Of a stretch of 64,000 bases of DNA, positions 18,457 through 39,979 are shown piece after piece (the stretch's first letter is position 1; each line of letters begins with the position of its first letter). Source of the DNA: Planctomycetota bacterium (lineage in GTDB: Bacteria > Planctomycetota > Phycisphaerae > Phycisphaerales > UBA1924); the NCBI GenBank assembly GCA_013285505.1, contig CP053450.1, positions 292,796 through 356,795 of the forward strand, written 5' to 3'. The notes beneath the pieces are model-generated. The model saw nothing but the letters and a program-made list of their open reading frames with translations, was not told where the DNA came from and did not search any database. Made by a program: the position numbers and the translations under genes.

Positions 18457-18730
18457 CCCCGCCACCCCGCTTAAAAGAGGCCCAAGGCGCAAGCCTGGGC
18501 GTTCTCTATCCTCCACTCGAGGCCACCCGACCCCACACCCAACCACTCCGCCACCGTCCACCTCACCCTCCGCGGAACCAACCGCCCAGCAGCGCCCACG
18601 GCCCAGCCATCCCATTGGCCCTACGACCCCGCCGCCCCGGTCGGGCGCACAACCCCGCCGCCCCCGAGGAATGCACCATCCCACCACCCAAGCAAGGCCC
18701 ACGACCCCCTCCGCCCCTGATGGACGCATG

Positions 18731-18865
18731 ACCCCTCCCGCCCCAGCGGGGCGCACGACCGTTGCCAGAGGCGCAGCCCCCACCGCCCCAGCGGGGTGCA
18801 CGACCGTTGCCAGGGACGCAGCCCCCACCGCCCCAGCGGGGCGCACGACCATTGCCAGGGGCGCA
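18731..18865. repeat. 45-bp tandem repeat, 3 copies
   Basis: cgccccagcggggcgcacgaccgttgccagaggcgcagcccccac repeats at 18731, 18776 and 18821 with a few substitutions. A single copy of the unit starts the 16265 repeat. Confidence 0.85.
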
Positions 18866-19040
18866 GCCCCTGGACACACCCCCACCAACCCAACCGCTCC
18901 GAAGGAGCGGCGGAAGCACAAACCCCGCCAGCCCCCACCCCACGAGCTTCGACTCCACCAACCCCGAACGCACCCACAAGCCCCGGACCCCAACGGGGTC
19001 CTCTCCAACAGCCGGGGGTCGCCGCAACCCCCGGGACCAC
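18821..19040. repeat. hairpin-array repeat, copy B (about 220 bp)
   Basis: Collinear with 16265..16479 and carries the same four hairpins. Confidence 0.7.
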
Positions 19041-19072
19041 GGGTGAAGTCGAGCATCGTTCGCGAGCGACCC

Positions 19073-20017
19073 CTAAACCACACGGCTAATCCACGCTGCG
19101 TCAAGAAACGCAGTCCGGTCGGCCCAGTAGCATCGGGAGAATCCGTGGACCGTACCAGCCAGAGTGGTTTGGCACACTTGGACGGCCCGCGGCCGGTGTA
19201 CCTCAGGGATTGATTGGTGAATTGCATGCCCGTCGCTGTGAACAATCAACCACAGAGGTAGTCCATTGGCCCGCGTGCAGCTCTTGAGCATGCTCTTACG
19301 GGCCTTCGTGGCCACATGCTCCCGCACCCAATGTCCATCCAACCCAACCACTCCTCCCCGCAGATTGCTGCCCACATCCGGTATCAGTTCACCGACACCC
19401 TGCAACTCCATGTGGTCGAGATACTTCGCACACAATGGGTATTCCGAATCAACGAGGTGGATGTCCCGCGTCCACCTGTTCAACTGACCGACACTCTGCG
19501 CCTTGCCGAAGCGGATCCTGCACGTCTCACAGAATTCCAATTCCGGGCCCACAGCAATAATGGAACTCAGTTCACCGATGAATCTCGAGTGGTCTCGGGT
19601 GGTCGGTACCGCTTTGACTTTGGTCTTTCCTGGCTCAGCGCGATGGATCTCGCGATACCGCAGCGAGATGCAGTATCCCTTGCGTTCGAGCAACTTGTAC
19701 AAATCGGCTTTTACAGCCCGTCGCAGTTTGAAATCACGTTCCATCACATCGCCACGGTCGCGACATGGTGAGTACCCCAGCAACTCAATAGCAACTGGAC
19801 CCACCGCCGTGCTCAACACTCCGTCTACCGTGGCTCCGCCAATTTCGACGACCACCTTCTTCGCGACAGCCTTCTCAATCGGTATCAGCTTGTAGCTCGC
19901 ACCGAATCGTCTGCGCATGGCCTTGCAGAACTCGGACAGCACGATCTCTTCGCGCCGCCGAGTGCCGGTGTCACCCCCGTAGCTGAATACATCTCGTTGT
20001 GGATCGAACGATGTCAT
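19073..20017 (-). CDS. hypothetical protein (314 aa), no family recognised
   Basis: Only long ORF in this low-G+C stretch. Starts MTSFDPQRDVFSYGGDTG. No Walker, recombinase or nuclease signature that I can defend. Confidence 0.6.
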   Translation of the reverse strand: MTSFDPQRDVFSYGGDTGTRRREEIVLSEFCKAMRRRFGASYKLIPIEKAVAKKVVVEIGGATVDGVLSTAVGPVAIELLGYSPCRDRGDVMERDFKLRRAVKADLYKLLERKGYCISLRYREIHRAEPGKTKVKAVPTTRDHSRFIGELSSIIAVGPELEFCETCRIRFGKAQSVGQLNRWTRDIHLVDSEYPLCAKYLDHMELQGVGELIPDVGSNLRGGVVGLDGHWVREHVATKARKSMLKSCTRANGLPLWLIVHSDGHAIHQSIPEVHRPRAVQVCQTTLAGTVHGFSRCYWADRTAFLDAAWISRVV

Positions 20018-20167
20018 GTCAGAACGCTATGTCGCAGCAATAGTCAATTCCGGGACCGACGCTCGCAAGTGTCATCTCCCGCCTCGCTCCGTAACCGACA
20101 TCCCCTCAGCCATACCTAGATTCCGCGCAGGCTTGAATGCATCACTTCATTGAGCAGAACCGTCGTC

Positions 20168-20839
20168 CTACTCTTCGCGCAACTGTTCGAGAGACAATGG
20201 ATCCCGCATTACCCCATCCTCGTCCGACACCGCCGTCAACCTACAGTGTTTGCTCGCTGGCTCCTCAACCAGTGAGACTTCCTGGACATCGCACTTTGTA
20301 ACGATGCGCGCGCACAATTCGCCCATGTATGGGCGGCCTTTGATGTGATCACACTCCCCGTATGCTGCGTGGCAGATCGAGCACTCTGACTCCTCGACAA
20401 TAAATGACACACTAGCAAACACTTGTTTCGGGAAACACAACCGTTCTAGTGCATGGAGTCGTGGGATATACAATAACTCCAAACGTGCGGCAACTTCGTG
20501 CGCCTTTACCGCATGACTCGCTGCCATTTGGGCGTTCACCAGATGGGTCCAGGCTCGACCGGGAGCGTCCTGCTTCAGCGCGATGTACATGTCCAGTTCA
20601 TTTGCTAATGCATCCAACATGTACTCGTAGGCTAGCAGTTCATTAGCTATCGCCTCATCCCTTGTTGCAACAGCGTCGCCCTTGAGCCGTGTTGTTCGCT
20701 CTATCATCAGCCGCAGTTGTTTCGAGTGCTCGGTCTGCAGACGAGTAGAACGACACAGTACTGCGAAACGACTGCACTCGTCAGCGACAGTATCAAACTC
20801 TTGACGATATGTGTCAAGTATGTCAGGAGTTAGAGTCAT
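20168..20839 (-). CDS. hypothetical protein (223 aa) with helical N-terminal half and Cys/His cluster CxxC-x6-CxH-x10-C
   Basis: I prefer ATG 20839 (MTLTPDILDTYRQEF, GGAG 11 nt upstream) over the track start 20890. Motif ESECSICHAAYGECDHIKGRPYMGELC, then CDVQEVSLVEEPASKHC. Overlaps the upstream gene by 17 nt. Confidence 0.6.
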   Translation of the reverse strand: MTLTPDILDTYRQEFDTVADECSRFAVLCRSTRLQTEHSKQLRLMIERTTRLKGDAVATRDEAIANELLAYEYMLDALANELDMYIALKQDAPGRAWTHLVNAQMAASHAVKAHEVAARLELLYIPRLHALERLCFPKQVFASVSFIVEESECSICHAAYGECDHIKGRPYMGELCARIVTKCDVQEVSLVEEPASKHCRLTAVSDEDGVMRDPLSLEQLREE

Positions 20840-21326
20840 TGCTCGCTTGCTCCACAATCCGACCGAACTCTTTAAGCCCCGCCGGGTCACCGCTGTATCT
20901 GAATCGCTTGTATTTACCTGTGTATCGGTCTTCTACCACGATCGAGAACTTGACTCGCCGCTCTCCGCCGATGCCCTTAAAGAAGTCAGTGGCATAGTTG
21001 GCGATCACACTCAGTGCAACATTGACGGCAGCAGCGTTTTCGGTGAGCAGCGAAATGCCAATGAACAAGGCGGGCAGTGTCAACTCAAAGGCGTTTTCTT
21101 GCAATACAAGAATTGTTTGTTCAGGTGACTCGATACGGTCTTCGACAATACCAGACTGTCGGAACAAGATGCGCAGAGTAGACACACTGCTCTCGTGAAG
21201 TAGCGCGGACGGACTGTCTGCTGTTGCCAGATTGCGCGGAAGAAAGGCAATCCCTTGTGGCATGTTCATCCCAAAGGCCTTTAGTTGTGTGTCAACATTT
21301 ACATAATCGTCGACTTCGATTGGCAT
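20823..21326 (-). CDS. hypothetical protein (about 167 aa) with one central hydrophobic segment
   Basis: ATG 21326 (MPIEVDDYVNVDTQLKAFGMNMPQG); the track uses a TTG at 21404. Hydrophobic stretch LTLPALFIGISLLTENAAAVNVALSVIANYA. About 43% G+C in the hand-counted lines nearby. Confidence 0.5.
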   Translation of the reverse strand: MPIEVDDYVNVDTQLKAFGMNMPQGIAFLPRNLATADSPSALLHESSVSTLRILFRQSGIVEDRIESPEQTILVLQENAFELTLPALFIGISLLTENAAAVNVALSVIANYATDFFKGIGGERRVKFSIVVEDRYTGKYKRFRYSGDPAGLKEFGRIVEQASNDSNS

Positions 21327-21555
21327 TAGTGACCTTTCAACTTCGGTAAATTGCCGCGCAGAGATCGACAAAGACGAACCTCGCCAGAGAAGATATTCTA
21401 GCAAGAAGTATGGCGGTTGGCGCTGACAAGACTGTGCTGTGTTGTTACCGGCTAGCCCCTAAATGGACTTAAACACACGAACTACCTAGTTCCCATCCCC
21501 CGGCAAGTGGCACCAATCCGCACCACCAACCTCGGCTCTGCAAAATCGGTGCTCC

Positions 21556-22119
21556 TCACACCTCCTTCGCCAACACCCCCGCCACCCCCTCCAACTCATA
21601 CCGCTGCCTCCCCTCCACCCGCACCAACCGCACCCCCGCAGCCGCACACACCCGCTCCAAAAACGCATCCCGCTCTCGCCGCCGCTGCTGCCCATGCGAC
21701 GAGTCATCAAGCTCAACGCAAGCCAACACCCGCGTCCGCGCATCGATGATCACAAAGTCGAACGTCTTCCGGTCCACCTTGTTCCGCCACTTCTGCCGCT
21801 CCCCCCGCTCCAGCCCCCGCCGCGGCTGCACCACCGCCCCCACCGGCACCTGAAACGCAATCCGCGCCTCCGGACCAAACACCGCCGCCACCGCCGGCTC
21901 CAGCGTCGCAAAGAACCGCAGCTCCGCATCCGTCAACAACCCCCGCTTCGCCTCATACGGCAGCGGTCCCTCAGCCCCGCCCGCAACATCGCCCCCGGGC
22001 TCATCCCCACCCCCGCCGCCCTGCTGCCTGGCCATCGCGACCGCGATCGCGACACCCACCACCAGCACAACACCGACCACCACTACCAGTCCAACCACCA
22101 CCAAGACCCAGTTTGCCAT
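21556..22119 (-). CDS. DUF2726 (restriction-endonuclease-like) domain protein with N-terminal TM helix
   Basis: MANWVLVVVGLVVVVGVVLVVGVAIAVA is a TM helix. YEAKRGLLTDAELRFFATL...KVDRKTFDFVIIDARTRVLACVELDDSSHGQQRRRERDAFLERVCAAAGVRLVRV matches the DUF2726 pattern I remember. Start chosen at ATG 22119 rather than 22164. Confidence 0.75.
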   Translation of the reverse strand: MANWVLVVVGLVVVVGVVLVVGVAIAVAMARQQGGGGGDEPGGDVAGGAEGPLPYEAKRGLLTDAELRFFATLEPAVAAVFGPEARIAFQVPVGAVVQPRRGLERGERQKWRNKVDRKTFDFVIIDARTRVLACVELDDSSHGQQRRRERDAFLERVCAAAGVRLVRVEGRQRYELEGVAGVLAKEV

Positions 22120-22542
22120 TGACCATTCCCCGCACGCGGCATGCGAATCCTGCCCTCCGCGCAACCCACACTACCCCACCACCCGACCCGCACGCAATGT
22201 CCAGAATCCCCTCAATCCCACAACAATCTGACACCTACATCCACACCTGCGCGCAACTTCGTGGACCTCCCCCAAAACCAAACCAACCTCACCCCACCCC
22301 GCCCTTATCCTGCGCACAGACCCATGCCCACCACCCACCCCATCGCCACACCCAACAGAGCCGCGGGCGCAAGCACGCGGCAGGGGTCGCCACAACCCCA
22401 GCACCACCCACACTCCCAAAGCCCCCAACACCAACCGCAATCACCCACCCTCCAAAACAGAGCCGCGGGCGTCAGCACGCAGCAGGAGGCCAGCACCCCG
22501 CCGCACCCCCCTTCCACCTCTCCCCCTCCTCCCCAGTGCCTG

Positions 22543-23274
22543 ATGCCGAGTGCCCAGTGCCTCACCCCCCAGGACGAGCACCTCCTCACCGCCCTCTTCG
22601 ACCCCGATTCCGACCTCCTCGTCGCCGCCGCCCACGCCGGCCTGACCGAGTCCCAGCTCATCGACTGGACCACCCAACCCCACATCCGCCAGCGCATCGC
22701 CGCCCACCGCGCCCTCCGCCGCCTCCGCCAGGAGATCCGCGCCGAGGCCACCGCCCGCCGCACACTCCAAACCCTCGAAGACCTCGCCCACTCCGCCGAA
22801 GACCCCATCGAACGCCGCCGCGCCGCCACCTCCATCCTCCGCTACCTCACCCCCCAAAGGACCCGCCCCCACAGAGCCCGACGCGCAAGCGAGGCGCCTC
22901 TCCCCCACCCCACCCAAAACAGAGCCCGAAGCGCAAGCGAGGAGCCTCTCCCCGATACCACCCAAAACAGAGCCCCAAGCGCAAGCGAGGAGCCTCTCCC
23001 CGAGCCTCTGCCCACCCCGGCACCGCCAGCCTCCCATCAAGCCCCGCCAGCTTCCTCCCCCGTGGCACCGGCTTCCAGCCGGTGCAATCCGCTTCCCTCT
23101 TCTCCAACCCCTCAATCACCGAGCGCACCAGCCGACCACAAAGAGCTCCCCACTCCTCCCGGCACTTCAAGACCTCACTCCCCCCGCCAACCCCGCTCCC
23201 CAAACCCCATCCACACCCTCCTCCACGCGCACGCAAAAACCCGCCAGGCCCCAACCCTCGCGCAACCTCCGTAA
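22543..23274 (+). CDS. hypothetical protein: helical N-terminal ~110 codons with strong codon bias, then a low-complexity tail encoded by repeats
   Basis: 22560-22870 reads TPQDEHLLTALFDPDSDLLVAAAHAGLTESQLIDWTTQPHIRQRIAAHRALRRLRQEIRAEATARRTLQTLEDLAHSAEDPIERRRAATSILRY with nearly all codons ending in C/G. Downstream the same frame runs through 48-bp tandem repeats. Start and stop are uncertain. Confidence 0.35.
   Translation: MPSAQCLTPQDEHLLTALFDPDSDLLVAAAHAGLTESQLIDWTTQPHIRQRIAAHRALRRLRQEIRAEATARRTLQTLEDLAHSAEDPIERRRAATSILRYLTPQRTRPHRARRASEAPLPHPTQNRARSASEEPLPDTTQNRAPSASEEPLPEPLPTPAPPASHQAPPASSPVAPASSRCNPLPSSPTPQSPSAPADHKELPTPPGTSRPHSPRQPRSPNPIHTLLHAHAKTRQAPTLAQPP
22871..23005. repeat. 48-bp tandem repeat, about 2.8 copies
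   Basis: acagagcccgaMgcgcaagcgaggMgcctctcccc... units start at 22871, 22919 and 22967. Followed by a perfect hairpin gcaccggct-tcc-agccggtgc near 23063-23083. Confidence 0.8.
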
Positions 23275-23286
23275 CACCCGATTCCT

Positions 23287-24462
23287 CTACGAGTCCCGCG
23301 TCCCCGACCACATCTCATACCGCAACAACCGGCACTCGATCTTCGCGTTCATAAACGGCGTCTTCTTCGCTGCGCGCAGCCCGACCTTCCCCGCCAGCTC
23401 GCGGCTGCCCGTAAACAAATGCCCCGTCCACCCCGCACACCGCTGCTTCAAAAAATCCCCGATCCGCCCGTACGTCTCCGCCAACGCCGCAGCCTCACCC
23501 ATCCGCTCCCCATACTCCGGGTTGATCACCACGTCCCCCGCCCCCTCCGGCATCGGCGTGTCCGCAAAGTCGCACTCCACAAACTCGATGTGCTGCTCCA
23601 CCCCCGCCGCCCGCGCATTCCGACGAGCCGCCTCCACCGCTGACGGATCATGGTCCGACGCGACAATCCGCGGCACAGGCCCCAACTCGCGCGCCCGCTT
23701 CAGCTTCCCCGCCTCCCGCCGCGCCTCACGCCACGCATCATCATCCGCCAGATACGTATGCAACAACCCAAAGTTACTCCGCAAGAGCCCCGGCGCGCGC
23801 CCGGTCGCGATCAGCGCCGCCTCGATCGCCAGCGTCCCGCTCCCGCACATCGGGTTCACCAGCGGCCGCGACCCGTCATACCCCGCCGCCAGCAGCACCG
23901 CCGCCGCCAGCGTCTCACGCATCGGCGCATGGTGCGGCAGCTTCCTGTACCCCCGGTCCCCCAACCGCTCGCCGCTCGTGTTCAGATACACCCACGCCCG
24001 GTCGCCCTTCCAGAACAGGTTGATCACCGTCTGGTACCGGTCCGGCCCCGAGTCCGGCCGGGCCCCGGTCTTCTTCATGATCCGGTCCACAATCGCGTCC
24101 TTGACCACGCGGCTGGGGTACAGCGAGTTGGTGACCTTGGGGTTGTCCACATTGCTGACGATGCTGATGTAGCCGTCGTTGGCGATCAGCGACTCCCACG
24201 GGTAGGCCGCGACGCTGGTGTAGAGCGCGTCCGGCGAGGGGCAGCGGAAGCGGGTGAGCTGCCACAGCACGTGCTGGGCGGTGCGCAGCCGCAGGTTCAG
24301 CGGCATGCAGTCGAGCAGGCTCGCGCCGATGTGGACACCGACGGCGTCCTCCTCCTGGATCTCGAACCCGAGCGCCTCGACCTCGGCGCGGAGGTAGGGC
24401 ACGGTGTAGGGGGCCGCGGTGATGCGGGTGAGCTGCTTCTTGGTGGGGTCGATTGGGGGCAT
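23287..24462 (-). CDS. THUMP-domain class I SAM-dependent RNA methyltransferase
   Basis: Start MPPIDPTKKQL at ATG 24462 (the track ORF begins at 24600). VNPMCGSGTLAIEAAL is SAM motif I. DVVINPEYGERMG is the NPPY-like motif IV. The N-terminal half is THUMP-like. Confidence 0.85.
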   Translation of the reverse strand: MPPIDPTKKQLTRITAAPYTVPYLRAEVEALGFEIQEEDAVGVHIGASLLDCMPLNLRLRTAQHVLWQLTRFRCPSPDALYTSVAAYPWESLIANDGYISIVSNVDNPKVTNSLYPSRVVKDAIVDRIMKKTGARPDSGPDRYQTVINLFWKGDRAWVYLNTSGERLGDRGYRKLPHHAPMRETLAAAVLLAAGYDGSRPLVNPMCGSGTLAIEAALIATGRAPGLLRSNFGLLHTYLADDDAWREARREAGKLKRARELGPVPRIVASDHDPSAVEAARRNARAAGVEQHIEFVECDFADTPMPEGAGDVVINPEYGERMGEAAALAETYGRIGDFLKQRCAGWTGHLFTGSRELAGKVGLRAAKKTPFMNAKIECRLLRYEMWSGTRDS

Positions 24463-24697: not shown

Positions 24698-27043
24698 ATG
24701 CAGCACACGCGACAGGCACGTCCGATCGGCATCCACACGTTCACCCGGGCCCTCGCGGCGGTGTGTCTGGTGGTGCTGCCCGCAGCAGGGGCGCAGCAGG
24801 ACGACAACGTCGAGTGGAACGGCGTCAGCCATCTGGAGTGGCAGGACCGGCGGCCGCTGTGCCCGGTGGGTGGCGAGAGCTTTGTGGTGCGGTTTCAGAG
24901 CTACCGCGACGACCTGACGGCGGCGCGGGTGCTGGTGGACGGCTCGGCGTGGGTGGACGCGTCGGTGGTGGCGAGCCGCGGGCCGTACGACGTGTGGGCG
25001 GCGACGGTGCCGGCGACGGCGAACGACACGCTGGGCTACATCATCGAGCTGACCGACGGGACGGACACGGACTATCTGTCCCGCACAGGGATGACCGACG
25101 AGATGCCGGTAGCGGAGGACTTTGCGCTGGACTTTGTGACGCTGGTGCACGCGCCGGTGGGGGCGACGCCGGTGACGGGGGGGACGGTCTTCAAGGTGTG
25201 GTCGCCCAACCGCTCGACGGTGCACGTGCGGGGACAGTTCAATGGCTGGTCGCTGGACGACCCGATGACCAAGGTGGGCGAGTACTTCGTGCGCTTTGTG
25301 GCGGGTGCGGGGCACGGGCATCAGTACAAGTACTTCTTCAACAACGGGCACTGGAACAGCGATGCGCGCGCGCGGCGGCTGAACCCGACGGACAGCTACA
25401 ACTCGTATGTCGTCGATCCGATGCGGTACCAGTGGCGGACCGGGGGGTTCTCGCCGCCGGCGGCGGAGGATCTGGTGATCTACCAGCTGCACGTGGGCAG
25501 CTTTGCGGGTCGGAATGATCCTTATGGCAACACGGGTAACCCGTCGGGGTTCCGCGATGTGGCGGACCGGGCGGGGCATCTGGCCGAGCTGGGGATCAAC
25601 GCGGTGATGCTGAACCCGATCCACGAGTTCCCGGGTGATTTTTCGGGCGGGTACAACCCGGTGAGTCAGTGGGCGATCGAGTGGCGGCTGGGGACGCCGG
25701 ACGATCTGAAGTACATGATCGACGAGCTGCACGCCAACGGGATCGCGGTGCTGCTGGACATCGTGTGGAACCACTTCAGCCCGAGCGACAACTTCCTGTG
25801 GAACTACGACGGGACGCAGTTGTACTTTGACAACCCGGTGGTGGACACGCCGTGGGGGCCGCAGGCGGACTTCGACAAGGCGGGTGTGAAGAGCTACTTC
25901 CTGGACAGCGCGGTGCTGTTGCTGGAGGAGTACCGGTTCGACGGGTTCCGGTTTGACGGCTCGGACTTTACGAACATCGGGCAGAACGAGGCGAGCGGGT
26001 GGGCGCTGATGCAGGGGCTCAACGAGCTGGTGGACCGGCGGTACGTGGACAAGACGATGATCGCCGAGCAGCTGCCGGACGATGCGTGGGTGACGCGTCC
26101 GGTCGCGCTGGGTGGGGCGGGGTTTGACGCGCAGTACCACGACGCGTTCAACGACAACCTGCGGTCGGAGGTCTTCGACGCGGCGTTCGGCGACCCGGAG
26201 ATGTGGCGGCTGGTGGATGTGCTCGAGGGGAGCGGACAGTATCTCGAGGGTGCGCAGGTGCTGAACTACTTCGAGCTGCACGATGAGTGCTGGAGCTCGT
26301 CGGGCGGGCAGCGTGCGGTCGTGACGATCGACAACGGTTTCCCGCACGACGATCAGTGGGCGCGGGGGCGGACGATGCTGGCGCAGGGGCTGACGGCGAT
26401 GGGGCCGGGGATCCCGGCGATCCTGATGGGCACCGAGTGGCTCGAGGACACCGACTTCGAGCAGGCGAAGATCGACTGGTCGAAGAAGACGACGTACGCG
26501 GGTGTGTTTGCGTACTACAGGGATCTGTACGCGCTGCGGGTGGGCAACACGGCGATGCGGGCGTCGAGCCCGTTTGAGGTCTTCCACTTCAACGAGGGCG
26601 GGAACGTGCTGGGGTTCCAGCGGTTCAACCTCGACGGCGGGGTGTACGCGGTGTTCGCCAACTTCTCGAACACCGACTACGGCGATTATCGCGTGGGCCT
26701 GCCGCAGCCGGGGCGGTGGGTCGAGGTGCTCAACAGCCAGGCGGCGGCGTACGGCGGGACCGGGCTGGACAACCCGGGCGTGCTCGAGAGCGACCCGATC
26801 GCCTACGACGGGTTTGCGCAGTCGATGGACATCGTGCTCTCGAAGATGGGGCTGGTGGTGCTGCGGTGGGAGGGTGAATGCGCCGCCGACTTCAACGGCG
26901 ACGGCACGGTGAACACGCAGGACGTGCTGGCGTTCCTGAACGCGTGGGCGGGCGGGGACTCTTCGGCGGACTTCAACAACGACGGAACAGTCAACACACA
27001 GGATGTGCTCGCCTTCCTCAACGCCTGGGTGGCGGGCTGCTAG
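24698..27043 (+). CDS. secreted GH13 alpha-glucan-active enzyme (CBM48 + catalytic domain, branching-enzyme/trehalohydrolase-like) with dockerin-like tail
   Basis: Signal peptide ..LAAVCLVVLPAAGAQQ. VFKVWSPNRSTVHVRGQFNGW is CBM48-like. GH13 regions are LLDIVWNHFS, YRFDGFRFDG, MIAEQLP and YFELHDE. The tail is CAADFNGDG...NAWVAGC-stop. Confidence 0.85.
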   Translation: MQHTRQARPIGIHTFTRALAAVCLVVLPAAGAQQDDNVEWNGVSHLEWQDRRPLCPVGGESFVVRFQSYRDDLTAARVLVDGSAWVDASVVASRGPYDVWAATVPATANDTLGYIIELTDGTDTDYLSRTGMTDEMPVAEDFALDFVTLVHAPVGATPVTGGTVFKVWSPNRSTVHVRGQFNGWSLDDPMTKVGEYFVRFVAGAGHGHQYKYFFNNGHWNSDARARRLNPTDSYNSYVVDPMRYQWRTGGFSPPAAEDLVIYQLHVGSFAGRNDPYGNTGNPSGFRDVADRAGHLAELGINAVMLNPIHEFPGDFSGGYNPVSQWAIEWRLGTPDDLKYMIDELHANGIAVLLDIVWNHFSPSDNFLWNYDGTQLYFDNPVVDTPWGPQADFDKAGVKSYFLDSAVLLLEEYRFDGFRFDGSDFTNIGQNEASGWALMQGLNELVDRRYVDKTMIAEQLPDDAWVTRPVALGGAGFDAQYHDAFNDNLRSEVFDAAFGDPEMWRLVDVLEGSGQYLEGAQVLNYFELHDECWSSSGGQRAVVTIDNGFPHDDQWARGRTMLAQGLTAMGPGIPAILMGTEWLEDTDFEQAKIDWSKKTTYAGVFAYYRDLYALRVGNTAMRASSPFEVFHFNEGGNVLGFQRFNLDGGVYAVFANFSNTDYGDYRVGLPQPGRWVEVLNSQAAAYGGTGLDNPGVLESDPIAYDGFAQSMDIVLSKMGLVVLRWEGECAADFNGDGTVNTQDVLAFLNAWAGGDSSADFNNDGTVNTQDVLAFLNAWVAGC

Positions 27044-27073: not shown

Positions 27074-28000
27074 ATGAAGATCCACACCTTTCTGATCGGA
27101 CTGTGCCTCTTGGCTTCTTGTTCTGTGGCGCAGCCGATTCGCGTCCTCACGCTTGACAGTTCGCGCAGCGGCGTCTGCGGCGGCATCGACTACAACATCC
27201 TCACGGGCAATGCGTTCGCCGCGGTGCGCGGTGCGATGGACGATCCCGGCAACTTCGGCGGCGGGGGTGTGGTTGACCGGGAGATCGCGTGGGCCGCGCA
27301 GGTGCCCGTGGTCACACGCGACGCGCTGCAGACCTGCGACGTGGTGCTGCTCTCTTCCAACCTCACACGGCTTGATGTCTGTGAGCGCCGCGCGCTTTTT
27401 GAGTTTGTCGATGCCGGCGGCGGGGTGTTCATGTTCAGCAACGGGGCCATCAGCCAGATGGGCTTGCCGCTCGGGGCGACTCCCGCGCCGGTGAACGGTT
27501 CCGGGAATGGGCTCATTACCGACGAGTCGAGTCCGGTGACGGACGGCCCCTTCGGGGCTGTGGCCGGGACGCTCTCCATGGCCTTCCATCGCGGGTTTGA
27601 TGCGGTGGGGCCGAACGGCTCGGCGTTCGTCGCGTCCGACATCGACTATGGGGCGACGTTTGAGGTCGGCGCCGGGCGGGCGGTGCTGTACGGCGACGAG
27701 GAGTCGTTCATGGCGATCTCCGAGAACGGGTGTGCCGCGGGCATGCTGACCAACAAGGAATTGGCGATCTTCCTGAACACGGTGGCGTTTATCGCCCCGG
27801 ATCCGGGGTTCGAGTTCACCGGCAGCGGCGAGTGCTGCCCGGCGGATGCGAATCAGGACGGGGAGGTGAACACGATCGACGTGCTGGCGTTCCTGAACCA
27901 GTGGAACGGCGATGAGGCCTTCGCCGACATCAACGGTGACGGCGTCATCAATACCCAGGACGTCCTGGCGTTCCTGAACCTGTGGAACGGCGGGTGCTGA
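27074..28000 (+). CDS. secreted hypothetical protein with dockerin-like tail
   Basis: MKIHTFLIGLCLLASCSVAQ is a signal peptide, with AAGGAGA 8 nt upstream. The body is unassigned. The tail is CCPADANQDGEVNTIDVLAFLNQW...NLWNGGC-stop. It lies 30 nt after the GH13 gene, probably in an operon. Confidence 0.75.
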   Translation: MKIHTFLIGLCLLASCSVAQPIRVLTLDSSRSGVCGGIDYNILTGNAFAAVRGAMDDPGNFGGGGVVDREIAWAAQVPVVTRDALQTCDVVLLSSNLTRLDVCERRALFEFVDAGGGVFMFSNGAISQMGLPLGATPAPVNGSGNGLITDESSPVTDGPFGAVAGTLSMAFHRGFDAVGPNGSAFVASDIDYGATFEVGAGRAVLYGDEESFMAISENGCAAGMLTNKELAIFLNTVAFIAPDPGFEFTGSGECCPADANQDGEVNTIDVLAFLNQWNGDEAFADINGDGVINTQDVLAFLNLWNGGC

Positions 28001-28201: not shown

Positions 28202-28876
28202 ATGTGGATGATGAACTCTGGTGTGCTGGTGAGGGTGTCGGTTGGCGTGTCGGTGTGTGTCGGTGTGGCGACAGCTGTTGCACAGGACCACAACCACATC
28301 ACGGTGGACACGGACGGCTCGCGGGTGCTGCTGGACACGGGGTACCTTCCCGACGAGACGGGGTTTGAGATTGCTCCGGACGGGTGGGTGATGTTCGAGG
28401 GTGAGCGGCTGGTGCGTGAGTCGCTTGCGGAGTGGACGGGTTCGCCGCTGACGGGTTGGCAGCTCGGGGCCGAGACGGTGATGACGAGCGACTATTACGC
28501 GCCGACGGGCCGGCTCGACGGGGGCGATTTCTGGGTCGAGATCGCGGGGTTTGCCTTTGTCGGGGGCGATCGCGAGAGCGACTTTGCGTGGGCGACGCGG
28601 GACCGGTCGGTGCTGGAGCGGATCGGGCAGTATTCGGCGGGGACGCGCGAGGGGCGGAGCTTCTACGTCGGCAACAACCAGCACCCGCACAGCCAGGTGT
28701 GGCTGGCGGAGCGGCCGGGGTTGTACGCGTTGACGCTGGTGGCGTGGGATGCCAACGGTGTGTACGCGGATTCGGCGCCGATTCAGATGTACATCCGTTC
28801 GGTGCCGGGTCCGGGCGGGCTGGGTGTGCTGGCGTGCGCGGGGGTCGTGGCGGCCCGCCGCCGCGGGCGGGGATGA
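28202..28876 (+). CDS. secreted protein of a three-member local family, PEP-CTERM tail
   Basis: The start is one of ATG 28202/28208/28211 (MWMMNSGVLVRVSVGVSVCVGVATAVAQ). Shares HNHITVDT, TSDYYAPTGRLDGGDFW and NGVYADSAP with the two downstream genes. It ends VPGPGGLGVLACAGVVAARRRGRG. Confidence 0.75.
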   Translation: MWMMNSGVLVRVSVGVSVCVGVATAVAQDHNHITVDTDGSRVLLDTGYLPDETGFEIAPDGWVMFEGERLVRESLAEWTGSPLTGWQLGAETVMTSDYYAPTGRLDGGDFWVEIAGFAFVGGDRESDFAWATRDRSVLERIGQYSAGTREGRSFYVGNNQHPHSQVWLAERPGLYALTLVAWDANGVYADSAPIQMYIRSVPGPGGLGVLACAGVVAARRRGRG

Positions 28877-29056
28877 GGGCGGCTTTGGGGCCCGGTTTCT
28901 GCGGGGCTCGGGCTTGATCGGGATGGCCGAGTCTGTAGGCTGTGGTGGTGTGGGGTGCGGATTGCGGGGACGAGAGTTTGGGAGGGCCCGTCCGGGTTCT
29001 CGGACGGGGATGCAGCACACACACGCGATAGAAATTCGATTCAGGGAGTTTGCACC

Positions 29057-29716
29057 ATGGCACGTCTTGCCCTCGTTACCGTTGCCGGCCTCGCGGCGAC
29101 ATCGTTTGGCCAGGTCGATCACGTCCACCTGACGGTGGACACCGAGAGCGGGCAGCAGGGCGATCAGATCCTTGTGGAGACCGGGTGGTATCAGGGCGAG
29201 GAGAACATCTCCATCGGCCAGGACGGGTATGTGTACGACGGCAACGAGATTCTGGTCGTGGAGTTTGGCGATACGTACAGCGGCGGGAACGCGTGGGACG
29301 GCCGGTACTTCGGCGCGGGGCCGCGGCTGACGAGCGACTTCTTCTTCCCGACCGGCCGGCTCGACGGCGGCGACTTCGCGTTCGAGATGGTGGATGTGTC
29401 GCCGGTCTCGGGCAACGGGGCCACGGCGTTCGGCTGGGCGGAGAACCACAACGGCACCCTGATGAACATCGCCGATTCGGAGGGGGCCTCGAAGGACGAC
29501 CGCAGCTTCTGGGTCGGCACCAACCGGCACATGCACCACCAGATTCTCTCGTCAACCCATCGCGGTATGTGGGACGTGACGATGGTGGCCTACGACATCA
29601 ACGGCGTGTACGTTGACGCGGACCCGTTCACGATGCGGTTCAGCGTTGTTCCGGCCCCGGCGGGTCTGGCGCTGTTGGGCGCGGGCGGGCTGGTCGCGGC
29701 ACGCCGTCGTCGCTGA
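29057..29716 (+). CDS. secreted protein of the same family, PEP-CTERM tail
   Basis: ATG 29057 with AGGGAG 8 nt upstream. MARLALVTVAGLAATSFGQ is a signal peptide. Family motifs VDHVHLTVDT, TSDFFFPTGRLDGGDFAF and NGVYVDADP. It ends VPAPAGLALLGAGGLVAARRRR. Confidence 0.8.
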   Translation: MARLALVTVAGLAATSFGQVDHVHLTVDTESGQQGDQILVETGWYQGEENISIGQDGYVYDGNEILVVEFGDTYSGGNAWDGRYFGAGPRLTSDFFFPTGRLDGGDFAFEMVDVSPVSGNGATAFGWAENHNGTLMNIADSEGASKDDRSFWVGTNRHMHHQILSSTHRGMWDVTMVAYDINGVYVDADPFTMRFSVVPAPAGLALLGAGGLVAARRRR

Positions 29717-29808
29717 GGGCGGATGGATTGAGTTCTGACCGGGGGTGCGCGGGAACGCGCGCCTCCGGCTTTCACAGTTGAGGTCGTGCTGCGGACGCGG
29801 CCGGGAGG

Positions 29809-30594
29809 GTGGTCGTGGCAACCAAGCGAGCGTTGAACGGGATGATCGGCGGGCTTGTCGGCGCGGCGGCGTGCGGGCTGGTTGGTGCTCCGTCGGCGGT
29901 GGCCGACCACGCGCACGTGACGGTCGATACGGCGAACGGGCAAATCAAGATTGTGACCGGGTACCTGTTTGGTGAGGACAACTTCACGATCGATGAGGAT
30001 GGATGGCTGCGGGAGGACGGGGAGATCTTCCGGCTGGTGTGCGACCAGACCTGGGGGGGCACGCCGCACACGGGGTGGCCTGTCGGCATCGAGCAGATGA
30101 CGCTGACGAGCGATTACTTCGGCGCGACCGGTCGGCTCGACGGGGGCCACTTCTGGTACGAGCTTGCGGGCGTGACGGCGATCGAGGGCGACCCGACGCC
30201 GACGCTGATCTGGGCCGAGGAGTTCAACGGCACGCTGGTGGGTATTGCCGACAGCGACAGCGCCGACCGCAGCAAGCGGAGCTTTGAGCTCGGCTTCATC
30301 GGGCACATCCACGAGCAGCGGCAGCTCATTGAGCAGCCGGGCTTGTACGAGGTCTCGCTGATCGCGTGGGACTCGAACGGGGTGTACGGCGACTCGGCGC
30401 CGGTGCGGTTTTACGTCGAGGTGCCGGGGTGCGACGCGGACATCAACGGCGACGGCGTGGTGAACACGCAGGACGTGCTGGCGTTTCTGAATCTTTGGGC
30501 TGCGGGGGATGCGCGGGGCGACTTTAACGGCGACGGCACGGTGAACACGCAGGACGTGTTGGCGTTCCTCAACGCGTGGAACACAGGATGCTGA
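29809..30594 (+). CDS. secreted protein of the same family, but with the dockerin-like tail
   Basis: GTG 29809 or 29815 after GGGAGG. Family motifs ADHAHVTVDT, TSDYFGATGRLDGGHFWY and NGVYGDSAP. It ends CDADINGDG...NAWNTGC-stop. Confidence 0.75.
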   Translation: MVVATKRALNGMIGGLVGAAACGLVGAPSAVADHAHVTVDTANGQIKIVTGYLFGEDNFTIDEDGWLREDGEIFRLVCDQTWGGTPHTGWPVGIEQMTLTSDYFGATGRLDGGHFWYELAGVTAIEGDPTPTLIWAEEFNGTLVGIADSDSADRSKRSFELGFIGHIHEQRQLIEQPGLYEVSLIAWDSNGVYGDSAPVRFYVEVPGCDADINGDGVVNTQDVLAFLNLWAAGDARGDFNGDGTVNTQDVLAFLNAWNTGC

Positions 30595-30611: not shown

Positions 30612-31496
30612 ATGACTCTCGAGAACGGTCGATACCGGTGTGCGCAGCTCGCGGGCGCGGTGGTGTTGCTGACGGCGGCGGCGGCGGTGGGGCAGCAGGC
30701 CCGGTTTGCCGAGGCGTCGGACGCGGAGGTGGGGCTGGGCGACGCGGTCTCGCTGTCGCTGGTGGACGCGGATGGTGCACGGCTGTGGAGCGAGCACCGG
30801 GCGGAGTATTTCTTGGCGCGGACGGCGTGGTCGCAGGAGAACCGGGACGCGGTGCCGGTGGCGGAGCGGTCGGGCGGGCTCGAGGCGGCGTGGGTCGCGG
30901 ACGAGCCGGGGGGTGCTGCTGCTGGGTGTTGATCTTGCCCCGGTGGACGAGACGGTGAGTGCCGGCTCGTTTGCGTCGTTTCTCGAGCGGGTGTTGCCCG
31001 CGACCAGGCGGGGGGCGCTGGACGGGCTGCTGCGGACGGATGATGTGGAGGGGCGCGGTGGTGGTGCGTCGCGTTGAGTCGTGCAAGGCGCGCTGGTGCG
31101 GGTGGAGGGGGCGATGCCGAGCCGGTGTCGATCGCGACGAGCAAGACGGGGCAGGTGGTGGAGATCCGGCCGCTGATGGATCCGACGGCGATCGTGCCGG
31201 GGAGCGATCTGGCGGTGCGCGTGTATTCGCGCGTGCCGGGTCCGGCGGACGGGCTGGTGATCGCGACGAACGTGACGACGGGGGAGATTGTGCGCGCGCC
31301 GACGAACGGGACGTCGCTGGTGGTTGTGCCCATCGGCGGAGCGGGGCGGTGGCGGCTGGAGTTTCATGCGGTGGAGCCGCTGGAGGCTGCGGCGGGCACG
31401 GAGGGGGATGGGGCGGCGGAGTGGGCGGTGCACACGGCGACGCTGACGTTTGATGTGGTTGCGGAGCGGGAAGTGGAAAAAGGGGTGGGACGATGA
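30612..31496 (+). pseudogene. DUF4198-like periplasmic protein, at least three frame changes
   Basis: MTLENGRYRCAQLAGAVVLLTAAAAVGQQ is a signal peptide. The sensible sequence continues across ORFs 30576..30932, 30706..31077, 30959..31453 and 31074..31496. The C-terminal part GQVVEIRPLMDPTAIVPGSDLAVRVY...GRWRLEFHAV resembles DUF4198. Shifts lie at the G6 run 30908-30913, near 31050 and near 31085-31105. The stop overlaps the next start (ATGA, 31493-31496). Confidence 0.55.
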
Positions 31497-33745
31497 AACG
31501 CATGAGCACGCAACGGCTGATTCGGATGGTTGTCACGGCTTCGGCGGCGGTGCTTGCGAGCACGACGCTGGGGCAGTCCTGGCAGGAGCTTGGCCCGTCG
31601 CCGATCAACTCGGGCGGGGGGTATGCGGGGCGGGTTTCTTCGGTGGCTGCGAGCGCGACTGACGCCGATTTGTACTACGTCGGGGCTGCGGACGGGGGGG
31701 TGTGGAAGACGACCGACGGCGGGGCGTCGTGGACGCCGCTGACCGACCACATGCCGACGACGGCGATCGGCGCGGTGGCGGTTGATCCGACGAACGATCA
31801 GATTGTGTATGCGGGGACGGGCGAGGCGAACTACGCGAACCACTCGCGGTACGGGCTCGGGGTGTTCCGCTCGACGGATGGCGGGGCGACGTGGGAGCAG
31901 TTTGCGGAGGACACGTTTGGGGGGCGGACGTTCTCGAAGCTGGTGGTGGACCCGCAGACGCCGAGCACGCTGTATGCGGCGGTGGCGCGGGCGGGCGGTT
32001 TCCCGGCGCTGGCGGGGGCGAAGGGTCATCCCGGCGCGACGGGTCCGGTGGGGGTGTTCAAGTCGGTCGATTCGGGCGAGACGTGGACGCACCTGACCAA
32101 TGGTGTGCCGGCGGTGGAGGCGAGCGACATCGCGATCGACCGGGTGAACCCCTCGACCGTGTACGTGGCGATCGGGAACATCTTCGGCGATACGGGCAAC
32201 GGGGTGTACAAGTCGACCGATGGGGGGGCGTCGTGGAGCAAGCTGGGGGGCGGGCTGCCGAACTCGCAGGTGGGGCGGGTGAGCCTGGACGTCTCGCCGA
32301 GTTCGCCGCAGACGGTGTATGCGCTGTTTACGCGGCAGGCGAGTTCGACCGGTGGCGGGGCGTCGAACATCGGCGGGTATCGCTCGGACGACGGGGGGGC
32401 GACGTGGGTCTCGCGCGGGAGCGTGGACCAGTCGAGCTATGGGTGGTTCCTCTCGTGTGTGTCGGTGCGGCCGACGGATGAGAACACGGTGTTTTATGGC
32501 GGGCTGAACATGCGCCGCTATGTGAACAATTCGGGCAGCACGACCACGCCGCCGCACGTGGACCTGCACGCGATCGCGTGGGACGCTGCGGGGCGGCTGC
32601 TGTGCGGCAACGACGGCGGGCTGCACCGCTCGACGAATCTCGGCAGCTCGTGGACGAGCCTGTCGCCGGGGCTGGGGACGATCCAGATCTACGCGGGGCT
32701 CTCGACGCACCCGAGTGATGACGAGTTTGTGCTGGCGGGGATGCAGGACAACGGGACGAACCGGCGGACGAACGGCACGAAGACGTGGCAGCACGTGATC
32801 GGCGGCGACGGGGGCTGGACGCAGATCAACCAGAGCTCGCCGAACATCATGTTTGGCGAGTACCAGGGCACGGGGAATCTGTTCCGGTCGACCAACGGCG
32901 GGTCGTCGTTCAGCTATGCGGGCTCGGGGATCGGCGGGCGGAACTGCTTTTTGCCGCCGTACGTGATCGATCCGGGGAACACGAACACGGTGTATTACGG
33001 CACCGAGCGGTTGTACCGCTCGACCAACGGCGGGACGAGTTGGAGCGCGCGGTCGGGGGACATCACCGACGGCGGCGGGGCGATCCGGGCGCTGGCGGTT
33101 GCGCCGAGCAACACGAGCTACATCTACGCCTCGACCAACGACGGCAACGTGGCGGTGTCCACGAACGCGGGGCAGACGTTTTCGCAGATTCTCGATGAGC
33201 ACCCCGGGTGGCCTCGGGTGACGCGGGAGTTGTTTGTGGACCCGACCGACGAGGAGACGGTGTATCTGGCGACGGCGTACTTCGGGACGACGCAGATCCG
33301 TCGCTCGACCGATGCGGGGCAGACGTGGGAGGCGCTGGATGAGAACCTGCCGGACATCCCGGTGAATGTGGTGGCGGTGGACCACCGGCAGCGTCGGCTG
33401 ACGGTGTATGCCGGGACGGACGCGGGGCTGCTGCGGTCGGTTGACGGCGGCGACAGCTGGCACGCGTATCCGCCGGGGCTGCCGAACGTGCCGGTGATCG
33501 ACATCGAGCTGGACACGGGGCGCGAGCGTCTGGTGGTGGCGACGCAGGGGCGTGGGGCGTGGCGTGTGGCGATCGGGTATTGCGACGGCGACTGGAACGG
33601 CGATGGCACGGCGAACACGCTGGATGTGCTGGCGTTCCTGAACGACTGGAACGAGGGCGATGCGGGGGCGGACATCAACGGGGACGGTGATGTCAACACG
33701 CTGGACGTGCTGGCGTTCCTGAATGACTGGAACGCGGGGTGCTAG
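31493..33745 (+). CDS. secreted BNR/Asp-box repeat (sialidase/GH74/sortilin-like) double-propeller protein with dockerin-like tail
   Basis: About ten SxDxGxTW boxes (TTDGGASWTP, STDGGATWEQ, SVDSGETWTH, STDGGASWSK, SDDGGATWVS, STNGGTSWSA, STDAGQTWEA, SVDGGDSWHA...). Signal peptide ..ASAAVLASTTLGQ. The tail is CDGDWNGDG...NDWNAGC-stop. Confidence 0.85.
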   Translation: MKRMSTQRLIRMVVTASAAVLASTTLGQSWQELGPSPINSGGGYAGRVSSVAASATDADLYYVGAADGGVWKTTDGGASWTPLTDHMPTTAIGAVAVDPTNDQIVYAGTGEANYANHSRYGLGVFRSTDGGATWEQFAEDTFGGRTFSKLVVDPQTPSTLYAAVARAGGFPALAGAKGHPGATGPVGVFKSVDSGETWTHLTNGVPAVEASDIAIDRVNPSTVYVAIGNIFGDTGNGVYKSTDGGASWSKLGGGLPNSQVGRVSLDVSPSSPQTVYALFTRQASSTGGGASNIGGYRSDDGGATWVSRGSVDQSSYGWFLSCVSVRPTDENTVFYGGLNMRRYVNNSGSTTTPPHVDLHAIAWDAAGRLLCGNDGGLHRSTNLGSSWTSLSPGLGTIQIYAGLSTHPSDDEFVLAGMQDNGTNRRTNGTKTWQHVIGGDGGWTQINQSSPNIMFGEYQGTGNLFRSTNGGSSFSYAGSGIGGRNCFLPPYVIDPGNTNTVYYGTERLYRSTNGGTSWSARSGDITDGGGAIRALAVAPSNTSYIYASTNDGNVAVSTNAGQTFSQILDEHPGWPRVTRELFVDPTDEETVYLATAYFGTTQIRRSTDAGQTWEALDENLPDIPVNVVAVDHRQRRLTVYAGTDAGLLRSVDGGDSWHAYPPGLPNVPVIDIELDTGRERLVVATQGRGAWRVAIGYCDGDWNGDGTANTLDVLAFLNDWNEGDAGADINGDGDVNTLDVLAFLNDWNAGC

Positions 33746-33845
33746 GTCCGGTAACGGCCTGATGTCCGGGAATGTGTTTCAGAAACCGGACCTTGTTGGA
33801 TAGAATACGTGTGGTGGGATGCACTCTGGGATGAGGAGAGAGATC

Positions 33846-34736
33846 ATGCGCGCGCGTTACACCTTGGCTGCGGCTGCCTGCACGGCTGCGTTGTGTGGAC
33901 CACTTCTGGCACAGCCGGTCGCCCACTGGCGTTTCGACGAGGCGGGCGGCACGACGGCGGAGGACTCGGCCGGTTCGTACGACGGGACGCTGGTCGGGCC
34001 GGTGGTGTTCGTTCCCGGAGGTGTCGTCGGCAACGCGGTTGAGATCCCGGCCGACGGGTACGTCACCATGGGCGATGTGCTCCGCTTCACCGATCAGAGC
34101 TTCAGTCTCTCGTGCTGGATACGGGTTGACCCGGGGTATCCGGTGTACTCCCTCGTGGTGGGCAAGCACACTTCGACCATCGTTGCGGGGTACTTCCTGG
34201 CGTTGAATTCCGGCGCGGGCTACGGCACGCCGAACACCGCCCACTTGTACACGGCCAACCGCCCCGGTGGCGAGGCGATCGGGACCACCACGATCAACGA
34301 CGGGGAGTGGCATCACCTCGTCGGTGTGTACAAGGCGGGCGCCAACACGCGGATCTATGTGGACGGAGCGCCGGTCGAGGACACCGGATCGGCGGACAAC
34401 CTCAGCAGCACCGACGCCCCGTTCGCGGTGGCGGCGATCAAGCTGACCAATGGTTCGATCATCAACACCTTCCAGGGTCTGGTCGATGACCTGCAGGCGT
34501 ATGACTACGTGCTGTGTGACTCGGACGTTGAGTTTCTGTTTCAGAACCCCGGCGCCGAGCACACGCCGCAGTGCCTGGCGGACTTCAACCAGGACGGCTC
34601 GGTCAACACGCTCGACGTGCTGTCGTTCCTGAACGCCTGGGCCGCCGGTGAGCTTCGCGCCGATGTGAACTGCGACCTGACGGTCAACACCCAGGACGTT
34701 CTCGTGTTCCTGAACGCGTGGAACGCGGGGTGTTGA
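33846..34736 (+). CDS. secreted LamG-like lectin-fold protein with dockerin-like tail
   Basis: ATG 33846 after GAGGAGAGAG. MRARYTLAAAACTAALCGPLLAQ is a signal peptide. HWRFDEAGGTTAEDSAG...FSLSCWIRV...WHHLVGVYKAGANTRIYVDGAPV...VDDLQAYDYVL is the LamG_3 pattern. The tail is CLADFNQDG...NAWNAGC-stop. Confidence 0.8.
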   Translation: MRARYTLAAAACTAALCGPLLAQPVAHWRFDEAGGTTAEDSAGSYDGTLVGPVVFVPGGVVGNAVEIPADGYVTMGDVLRFTDQSFSLSCWIRVDPGYPVYSLVVGKHTSTIVAGYFLALNSGAGYGTPNTAHLYTANRPGGEAIGTTTINDGEWHHLVGVYKAGANTRIYVDGAPVEDTGSADNLSSTDAPFAVAAIKLTNGSIINTFQGLVDDLQAYDYVLCDSDVEFLFQNPGAEHTPQCLADFNQDGSVNTLDVLSFLNAWAAGELRADVNCDLTVNTQDVLVFLNAWNAGC

Positions 34737-39513: not shown

Positions 39514-39580
39514 CCGCCAGTCTTGACCGCGGGATCGGTGCCGCAGCGGGGGCCTGTGTCCCCACAGGGAGAGTTGTTTG

Positions 39581-39979
39581 ATGAGTACGAACCGGAAGTT
39601 GCTGGTGGCTGGTGTGGTCTTGAGTTTCGCGGGGTGTGCGTGGGGCCAGAGCTTCACGATCCCCTGGCACACGATCGACGGCGGCGGCGGGGCCGCGGCC
39701 GGCGGGGGCTTCACGCTGTCGGGCACGATCGGCCAGCACGACGCCGGCGGGCCGATGACCGGCGGCGGCTATTCGCTGACCGGCGGCTTCTGGGCTGCGC
39801 CGATGGGCGATCCGTGTGTCGGAGATTTCAACGGTGATGGGACCGTGAACACGCTCGATGTGCTGGCGTTCCTGAACGCGTGGACCGCTGCGGAGGGCTC
39901 GGCGGACATCAACGGTGACGGGACGGTGAACACGCTGGATGTGCTGGCGTTCCTGAACGCGTGGACGGCGGGGTGTTGA
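39581..39979 (+). CDS. small secreted Gly-rich protein with dockerin-like tail
   Basis: ATG 39581 after AGGGAGAG. MSTNRKLLVAGVVLSFAGCAWGQ is a signal peptide. FTIPWHTIDGGGG..GGGFTLSGTIGQHDAG..MTGGGYSLTGGFWA, then CVGDFNGDG...NAWTAGC-stop. Confidence 0.75.
   Translation: MSTNRKLLVAGVVLSFAGCAWGQSFTIPWHTIDGGGGAAAGGGFTLSGTIGQHDAGGPMTGGGYSLTGGFWAAPMGDPCVGDFNGDGTVNTLDVLAFLNAWTAAEGSADINGDGTVNTLDVLAFLNAWTAGC

Follow-up and report, generated by a model that had tools for sequence, protein, structure and literature searches.

Tandem paralogs of an unnamed planctomycete protein family with two kinds of C-terminal tail and a predicted metal site

The 64,000-nucleotide stretch of contig CP053450.1 from a Planctomycetota bacterium that was analysed here (the window) encodes three consecutive proteins, which we have designated P1, P2 and P3, that share one core domain and end in different C-terminal tails. 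All three are ancient tandem paralogs within an unnamed family; those members whose organisms are named come from Planctomycetota, and mostly from Phycisphaerales. P1 and P2 carry PEP-CTERM-like tails and P3 carries a GC-type dockerin, and the family has exchanged these two kinds of tail repeatedly on a core with near-invariant His residues. The reading that we favour, with moderate confidence, is that all three are surface-displayed binders of a metal, probably copper, with two alternative kinds of anchor.

The three paralogs, their tails and their family

The three genes were as follows (nt, nucleotides; aa, amino acids; window positions).

28202-28876, + strand: P1, 224 aa, ATG start; signal peptide aa 1-28, core aa 29-200, tail nt 28802-28876; His motifs HNH (nt 28289-28297) and HPHSQ (nt 28682-28696)
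29057-29716, + strand: P2, 219 aa, ATG start; signal peptide aa 1-19, core aa 20-197, tail nt 29648-29716; His motifs HVH (nt 29120-29128) and HMHHQ (nt 29528-29542)
29809-30594, + strand: P3, 261 aa, GTG start; signal peptide aa 1-31, core aa 32-207, GC-type dockerin aa 208-261 (nt 30430-30594)

P1, P2 and P3 are arranged head to tail, and the gene calls of P1 and P2 were reproduced independently on Logan contigs. The cores aligned properly as homologs, end to end and without large gaps, with 38-44% pairwise identity and blastp E-values of 8e-38, 2e-49 and 3e-38. An earlier reading of the window, made from the sequence alone (the sequence-only reading), had described three tandem paralogs, and the coordinates, identities and E-values (all <= 8e-38) bear this out. 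Each protein carried H-x-H-[ILV]-TVDT, TSD[YF], TGRLDGG, RSF, HxHxQ and [AY][WY]DxNGVY, and every shared motif quoted in that reading was recovered in all three. The hydrophobic, signal-peptide-like N-terminus of each protein stops immediately ahead of the HxH. The GC content around the locus was about 0.66-0.70, and the closest genome match, Phycisphaerales bacterium JB054, was 91% identical in amino-acid sequence, with the genes in the same order.

The tails of P1 and P2 both run up to the stop codon. The P1 tail, VPGPGGLGVLACAGVVAARRRGRG, consists of VPGP, a hydrophobic helix and RRRGRG (it reads GGLGVLACAGVVAA-RRRGRG), and the P2 tail, VPAPAGLALLGAGGLVAARRRR, consists of VPAP, a hydrophobic helix and RRRR (AGLALLGAGGLVAA-RRRR). 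A Pro motif, a hydrophobic run of approximately 14 residues and then clustered Arg residues make up the architecture of a PEP-CTERM signal, in the position of one. The P3 tail scored 60.7 bits against NF041540 dockerin_GC (cut-off 29), covering the whole profile (1-67), and 27.5 bits against Pfam Dockerin_1. It contains two calcium-loop repeats, DINGDGVVNTQD and DFNGDGTVNTQD, which lie between Cys208 and a terminal Gly-Cys (Cys261). By score, repeats and Cys brackets P3 is therefore a GC-type dockerin protein, which confirms the dockerin-like, Cys-bracketed tail proposed from the sequence alone.

The core is an all-beta domain of approximately 175 residues behind a Sec signal peptide, and it gave no match in Pfam. 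P2 matched choice-of-anchor M (NF038134) at 16.3 bits (E 0.0074), below the cut-off of 55, with aa 112-197 aligned to positions 100-184 of the 184 in the profile; P1 and P3 did not match this model. When 1.84 billion representative proteins were searched exhaustively with a profile, only 89 family clusters scored E<=1e-3, of which 58 reached E<=1e-10. Ten of 58 members matched NF038134 at E<=0.01 (best E 7.9e-6) and four matched TIGR03769 (best E 4e-4), with two matches to TIGR03772 and one to TIGR03773, all of them below cut-off. Assignment to TIGR03769 takes both a match to the hidden Markov model and an adjacent anchored-repeat ABC transporter; P1, P2 and P3 did not match TIGR03769, and no ABC transporter adjoined a family gene at the loci examined. 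Because the matched models describe one related group, remote kinship between the core and choice-of-anchor M/TIGR03769 is likely. The sequence-only reading had tentatively likened the core to these families, and the likeness holds as a remote resemblance at scores below cut-off.

Nearly all of the good family matches were 200-270 aa long and laid out like P1-P3. Long multi-repeat matches (P0057 and others) were rejected as family members, being PKD/Ig-like repeats that share only a YDVTLxAWDxNG strand with the core. All six of the loci in species-representative genomes were from Phycisphaerales or Planctomycetota metagenome-assembled genomes. The source annotations (PGAP) called members hypothetical, GC-type dockerin domain-anchored or PEP-CTERM sorting domain-containing, names that are given by the tail only.

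Tails and conserved residues were surveyed in 106 non-identical members. Dockerin-like tails were found in 60 (52 of them Cys-bracketed), PEP-like tails in 44 and both kinds in two. The Pro motif of the 43 pattern-scored PEP-like tails was PAP in 24, PEP in nine, PTP in four, PSP in four, PGP in one and PVP in one. VPEP-tailed members reach ~21 bits against TIGR02595 and so exceed its cut-off, and the tails grade continuously from VPEP to VPAP. At least 14 switches of tail type were counted on a neighbour-joining tree of the core, compared with 33.5 +/- 2.4 for shuffled labels, and P1, P2 and P3 belong to three separate subclades of this tree. The dockerin tail looks derived because the divergent basal clade, under midpoint rooting, has mostly VPEP tails. 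Family-wide, one core is thus found with different C-terminal anchors, and this survey of homologs establishes the choice-of-anchor behaviour that had been read from the window.

Two members, P0052 (307 aa) and P0081 (298 aa), carried a dockerin-like double repeat followed by VPEP-helix-RRRR, so the two kinds of anchor can be combined in series. An ordered ortholog triplet was present on a Logan contig from another metagenome (L018), with 64%, 67% and 65% identity to P1, P2 and P3 respectively and PEP-like, PEP-like and dockerin tails; its P1 ortholog (64%) has a VPAP tail and its P3 ortholog (65%) a dockerin. Triplet order and tail types were also kept in JB054, and tandem pairs of one PEP-tailed and one dockerin-tailed family gene were found at L001, L011/L012 and L014. 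The conserved PEP/PEP/dockerin set, together with the two members that hold both tails in series, suggests that the tails have complementary and not equivalent roles. The sequence-only reading had held the dockerin to be interchangeable with a sorting signal; the repeated swapping of tails agrees with this, but the serial fusions and the fixed triplet show that the claim was too strong.

In the closest clade the family genes usually lie directly 3' of a pyrB-like aspartate/ornithine carbamoyltransferase gene (L007 6715-7782, L008/L009, L018 2336-3349, L019 1578-2552), and at L008 and L009 they also lie 5' of guanylate kinase. In the window and in JB054 the triplet has moved into a run of dockerin-tailed genes.

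A putative metal site and its operon context

Residues of the core are numbered here as in P2. H24 was His in 103 of 104 sequences, H158 in 105 of 106 and H160 in 101 of 106, with Glu or Asp in the remaining five. His was found at position 22 in 94 members, Asp at 94 in 105, Glu at 110 in 104, Arg at 149 in 104 and Asp at 180 in 105. The five sequences with a residue other than His at position 160 all lacked His at position 22 as well, and on the tree these five are scattered over four or more separate positions. The sole member without H24 was also without H158 and H160. Such conservation and covariation of His, as read from the alignment, is the pattern expected of the ligands of a single metal ion, and the two HxH motifs, of which the second, HxH(G/x)Q, is close to the C-terminal end of the core, would most likely form a transition-metal site with the invariant Asp, Glu and Arg residues. 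The cleavage site predicted by a crude -3/-1 rule falls 0-3 residues ahead of the first His, such that the mature protein would start with H-x-H in approximately half of the members. The sequence-only reading had suggested metal binding from the His motifs; the near-invariant, co-varying His residues and the operon context elsewhere support this suggestion, and we still infer the binding itself.

This operon context was found at eight loci of other Planctomycetota (seven distinct sequences, as L011 and L012 share their genes), where a Cys-rich first gene is followed by a pseudopilin-like gene and then by one or two family genes. The operons span the following positions of their own loci.

L001, 5502-8765
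L006, 6352-8591
L011, 4802-7783
L013, 5537-7645
L014, 4469-7789
L015, 5080-7894
L016, 5816-7714
L017, 3074-4816

The pseudopilin-like genes showed 38-73% identity between loci; an N_methyl domain, a domain of the DUF1559 type or a weak match to the H-X9-DG motif was recognised in some copies. The first gene of L015-L017 encodes 107-129 aa, in which CXXC is followed after 44-45 residues by RAPP (NGPP in L017), 1-3 residues from the C-terminus. The L016 product matched PF11162 (DUF2946) at 30.6 bits, above the gathering score of 23.7, and those of L015 and L017 gave no match to PF11162. In CruR (Bp2923) the nascent chain senses copper via CXXC, which relieves arrest at RAPP, and CruR homologs, few of them in Planctomycetes, head predicted copper-homeostasis operons (PMC9426467). 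CutF is a second characterised copper-sensing leader (bioRxiv 10.1101/2025.02.05.636593). Judged by their sequences, the first genes of L015-L017 show the hallmarks of CruR/CutF copper-sensing leaders, and by analogy with these systems copper is our best guess for the metal at the predicted site.

At the Phycisphaerales loci (L001, L006, L011/L012, L013 and L014) the first gene is longer and encodes an N-terminal helix and the motif R[FY]PCExCxCGC..RECW..CCC. Its product ends in PPPR, preceded by ...LE/LD..., at L001, L011, L013 and L014, the loci where the ends were read, and in the three that were counted this motif lies 5-9 residues from the C-terminus. A search for relatives identified a long Cys-rich, leader-like family of 66 clusters (P0136-P0201; for example L013 5537-6169) of 170-300-aa membrane proteins. 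PPP was present within the last 20 residues of 64 of the 66, typically as PPPR shortly ahead of the stop codon, and annotation of these relatives, Pfam included, returned no match. In architecture they resemble ribosome-arrest leaders that sense metals.

The proposed model and its alternatives

In the model that we favour, the PEP-CTERM-like tails of P1 and P2 would serve as substrates that an exosortase-type enzyme processes, or else as plain membrane anchors, and the calcium-type GC dockerin of P3 would bind a cohesin-like partner or a component of the cell envelope. The same metal-binding module would in this way be shown at two locations or depths of the envelope. A wider proposal, which is tentative and which we would not call probable, is that the HxH...HxH family is a new Planctomycetota-specific class of extracytoplasmic copper protein (scavenger, chaperone or possibly copper-dependent surface enzyme). 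Its members would have a DUF1559 pseudopilin-like partner and arrest-peptide copper-sensing leader open reading frames (ORFs), including the new long Cys-rich PPPR family, and would be deployed at two locations by PEP-CTERM-like tails and GC-type dockerins.

Several results weigh against the favoured model, the first of which concern the anchors. P2 scored 15.0 bits against TIGR02595, for which the cut-off is 16, P1 gave no match to it, and Pfam PF07589 matched neither protein (E<=1). Because these scores fall short, the P1 and P2 tails are non-members of PEP-CTERM by the curated tests. Pro-Glu-Pro itself is missing, as P1 has VPGP and P2 has VPAP, with no Glu in either. No exosortase was found among the scanned ORFs of the window. 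The sequence-only reading had called both tails PEP-CTERM-type; their tripartite architecture upholds this, but the curated models, which P2 missed narrowly, do not. For the dockerin, no Pfam cohesin match was found among the scanned window proteins, although no search aimed at cohesins was made, and a search of the literature on GC-type dockerins and on exosortases in Phycisphaerae returned nothing specific.

These results raise the alternative that the tails of P1 and P2 are plain membrane anchors, such that P1 and P2 would remain on the periplasmic face of the cytoplasmic membrane, with P3 alone at the surface. Tails that lie under the PEP-CTERM thresholds and lack Glu are what this alternative predicts, and the dominance of VPAP (24 of the 43 scored PEP-like tails) and a 64-kb window with no exosortase agree with it. 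We nevertheless consider it rather unlikely, as the architecture is exactly tripartite, the family forms a continuum up to VPEP tails that pass TIGR02595, and the same kind of tail is reused in the window on a protein unrelated to the paralogs:

52632-53321, + strand: lamin-tail-domain (LTD) protein ending in IPAPAPIALLGLGGLIALRRR, of the IPAP...RRR type

The tail of the LTD protein did not match TIGR02595 (E<=0.1) and gave a 20.7-bit, tail-only match to Xrt_dep_XDP1.

A second group of adverse results concerns copper. The region upstream of P1, P2 and P3 was searched for a conserved regulatory motif or promoter, and none was found. The long Cys-rich first gene showed no homology to DUF2946 (hhalign probability 0.1%) and it was rejected as a DUF2946 gene at L001, L006, L011, L013 and L014, where it also fell short of PF11162; architecture alone is similar. 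Because this profile homology is lacking, the putative sensor role of the long first gene is drawn from its position and architecture only. No leader or pseudopilin genes were found near the family genes of the clade to which the triplet belongs (the window, L005, L007-L009, L018 and L019), and the link to copper is therefore transferred from sister clades. Finally, a ligand set made up entirely of His, Asp and Glu suits Zn or Ni equally with Cu.

The paralogs could alternatively be zinc (or nickel) capture proteins, like ZepA or choice-of-anchor M, that would scavenge Zn at the surface and hand it to importers. In favour of zinc, the conserved ligands are His, Asp and Glu, with no Cys or Met, and the sub-threshold matches to choice_anch_M, TIGR03769 and TIGR03772/3 lead to families that are encoded, in Corynebacterium diphtheriae, in transporter operons under the control of Zur and zinc (PMC6711530). 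A precedent also exists in ZepA, a Zur-repressed, zinc-binding PEP-CTERM exoprotein with His at its mature N-terminus and an experimentally supported role in extracellular metal handling (PMC10957091). However, ZepA is not homologous; All3515, taken from the supplement of that paper, gave an hhalign probability of 0.3% against the core, and homology was rejected. Moreover, no genes for Zur, ZnuA or COG0523 were found near the family members examined, and the regulatory partner, where there is one, is a CruR-type copper-sensing leader. On balance zinc or nickel capture is unlikely.

The structure of the core also fails to lend the favoured model support. AlphaFold2, run with the family alignment, gave a high-confidence all-beta model of full-length P2 (pLDDT 90.8) and a core-only model of P2 with pLDDT 95.2 and pTM 0.91. 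A Foldseek search of the two models against the PDB revealed nothing at E<=1e-3 (E > 0.005), the top matches being multicopper-oxidase cupredoxin and fimbrial lectin domains with a best TM of 0.38; a sequence-profile search of the PDB returned dockerins only. The core fold supplies no functional anchor because Foldseek finds no solved relative for it, and the modelled fold is a generic beta-sandwich elaboration without a close solved relative.

These matches bear on a further alternative, in which the core would bind carbohydrate, or act as an adhesin or an enzyme, within a polysaccharide-degrading surface apparatus, and its His, Arg, Gln and Tyr residues would form a sugar or catalytic site. 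The fimbrial lectin domains among the weak Foldseek matches would fit, as would the window neighbours, which include dockerin-tailed glycoside-hydrolase-like, BNR and LamG proteins, and the many conserved polar residues other than His. Nonetheless, the Foldseek matches are insignificant (E > 0.005, TM <= 0.38), and the neighbourhood of carbohydrate-active enzymes is not conserved, the family genes elsewhere lying beside pyrB/gmk or leader and pseudopilin genes. The changes from His to Glu or Asp and the coupled loss of His suit metal ligands instead, and we regard a carbohydrate role as very unlikely.

The paralogs are of interest beyond this locus. Many proteins in Phycisphaerae genomes bear GC-type dockerin tails, for whose role there is a database name to go by; a core that swaps tails, together with a fixed PEP/PEP/dockerin set, amounts to a natural experiment on where each tail directs proteins. 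The link to CruR-type leaders provides a concrete hypothesis of copper handling for planctomycetes, and the operon link may indicate what one of the numerous, enigmatic pseudopilin-like proteins of the DUF1559 type does.

Neighbouring genes and comparison with known systems

Including P3, 11 window proteins were found to end in a GC-type dockerin, on unrelated N-terminal domains. The dockerins of the ten others are near-identical, and their N-termini are GH13-like, BNR/sortilin-like, LamG or unknown.

4999-6213, - strand: dockerin-tailed protein
6645-8504, - strand: dockerin-tailed protein
9573-12512, - strand: dockerin-tailed protein
24698-27043, + strand: dockerin-tailed protein
27074-28000, + strand: dockerin-tailed protein, the upstream neighbour of P1; 308 aa, secreted, outside the paralog family
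31493-33745, + strand: dockerin-tailed protein
33819-34736, + strand: dockerin-tailed protein
39527-39979 (also read as 39578-39979), + strand: small dockerin-tailed protein
44154-44756, + strand: small dockerin-tailed protein
50167-51801, - strand: dockerin-tailed protein

The gene at 27074-28000 is part of a local run of dockerin-tailed surface proteins. The two small proteins (39527-39979 and 44154-44756) are nearly alike over their last 70 residues, and their genes border a giant GH5/CBM9 gene on the opposite strand. Because the LTD protein and the 11 dockerin proteins bear them, [VI]PAP-helix-RRR and the GC-type dockerin are reusable modules in this genome. The window also encodes a 478-aa protein with a C-terminal Rce1-like/CPBP intramembrane protease domain (61933-63369, - strand). 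It has been proposed that C-terminal sorting signals which contain Cys are processed by enzymes of this family (bioRxiv 10.1101/2023.06.07.544157); a link between the window protein and the terminal Cys of the GC-type dockerins is pure speculation.

Downstream of P3 lies a gene that is readable only across several frames:

30612-31496, + strand: weakly DUF4198-like gene

Its ortholog in JB054 (L005:9463-10377) is a single intact ORF of 304 aa. Alignment of the two revealed four indels (+1, +1, +2 and -1) in ~200 nt, partly at G runs, and in the window the gene has either decayed to a pseudogene or been misassembled. The intact ortholog matched DUF4198 (PF10670) at 21 bits (E 4e-4), below the gathering score of 34, and an NCBIfam scan of it returned no match. 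The gene was not adjacent to family members elsewhere. The sequence-only reading had taken a DUF4198-like, metal-linked neighbour as a clue to function, and this clue was rejected as the match is sub-threshold, the frame is disrupted in the window and the neighbourhood is not kept.

Between 14000 and 22000 the GC content of the window drops to 0.56-0.64 (~0.68 elsewhere). This stretch includes a DUF2726 gene (21556-22164, - strand) and may be a foreign island; Rfam gave no match over 14000-24000.

Among known systems, choice-of-anchor M/TIGR03769 is like the core in being a secreted all-beta domain of similar length (profile 184 aa, core ~178 aa) with alternative C-terminal anchors, and the weak matches to it are colinear over the C-terminal half. 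It differs in that the scores are far under cut-off, the taxon is different and no anchored-repeat ABC transporter lies nearby. In Gardnerella, operons of the TIGR03769 type are strongly induced along with the anchored-repeat ABC transporter (PMC11979175).

ZepA/all3515 (NF040463) resembles the family in layout, with a signal peptide, a mature N-terminus that bears His, a beta-sandwich fold, an H...HxH motif in its interior and a PEP-CTERM tail. Unlike the core, it has two domains and places its His motif elsewhere, and no dockerin-tailed homologs of it have been reported. ZepA scored 331 bits against NF040463, which none of the window proteins matched, and because of the hhalign probability given above it is an analogue only.

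Copper operons headed by CruR or CutF carry periplasmic copper-binding beta-sandwich proteins of the CopC, YcnI and PCuAC type; among these, CopC and YcnI are small and, like the family, use a His at the mature N-terminus. In contrast, the invariant His of the core does not always stand at mature position 1; the core gave no Pfam match to either (E<=1), and neither was among its top 50 Foldseek matches.

As in copper operons headed by CruR/CutF (DUF2946), the family gene of L015-L017 sits behind a DUF2946-type leader. The second gene, however, is a TonB-dependent transporter or PepSY gene in CruR operons and a pseudopilin-like DUF1559 gene in the family operons. For the dockerin, a cohesin/dockerin "planctosome" has been hypothesised in freshwater Phycisphaerae, in a model that concerns peptidases (PMC6461901). 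The P3 dockerin is a full member of NF041540, whereas the published model is about peptidases and not the HxH core. Set beside these systems, a secreted, metal-handling beta-sandwich with alternative sorting tails is a known kind of protein; the core found here would be an unannotated one with a conserved set of four His residues.

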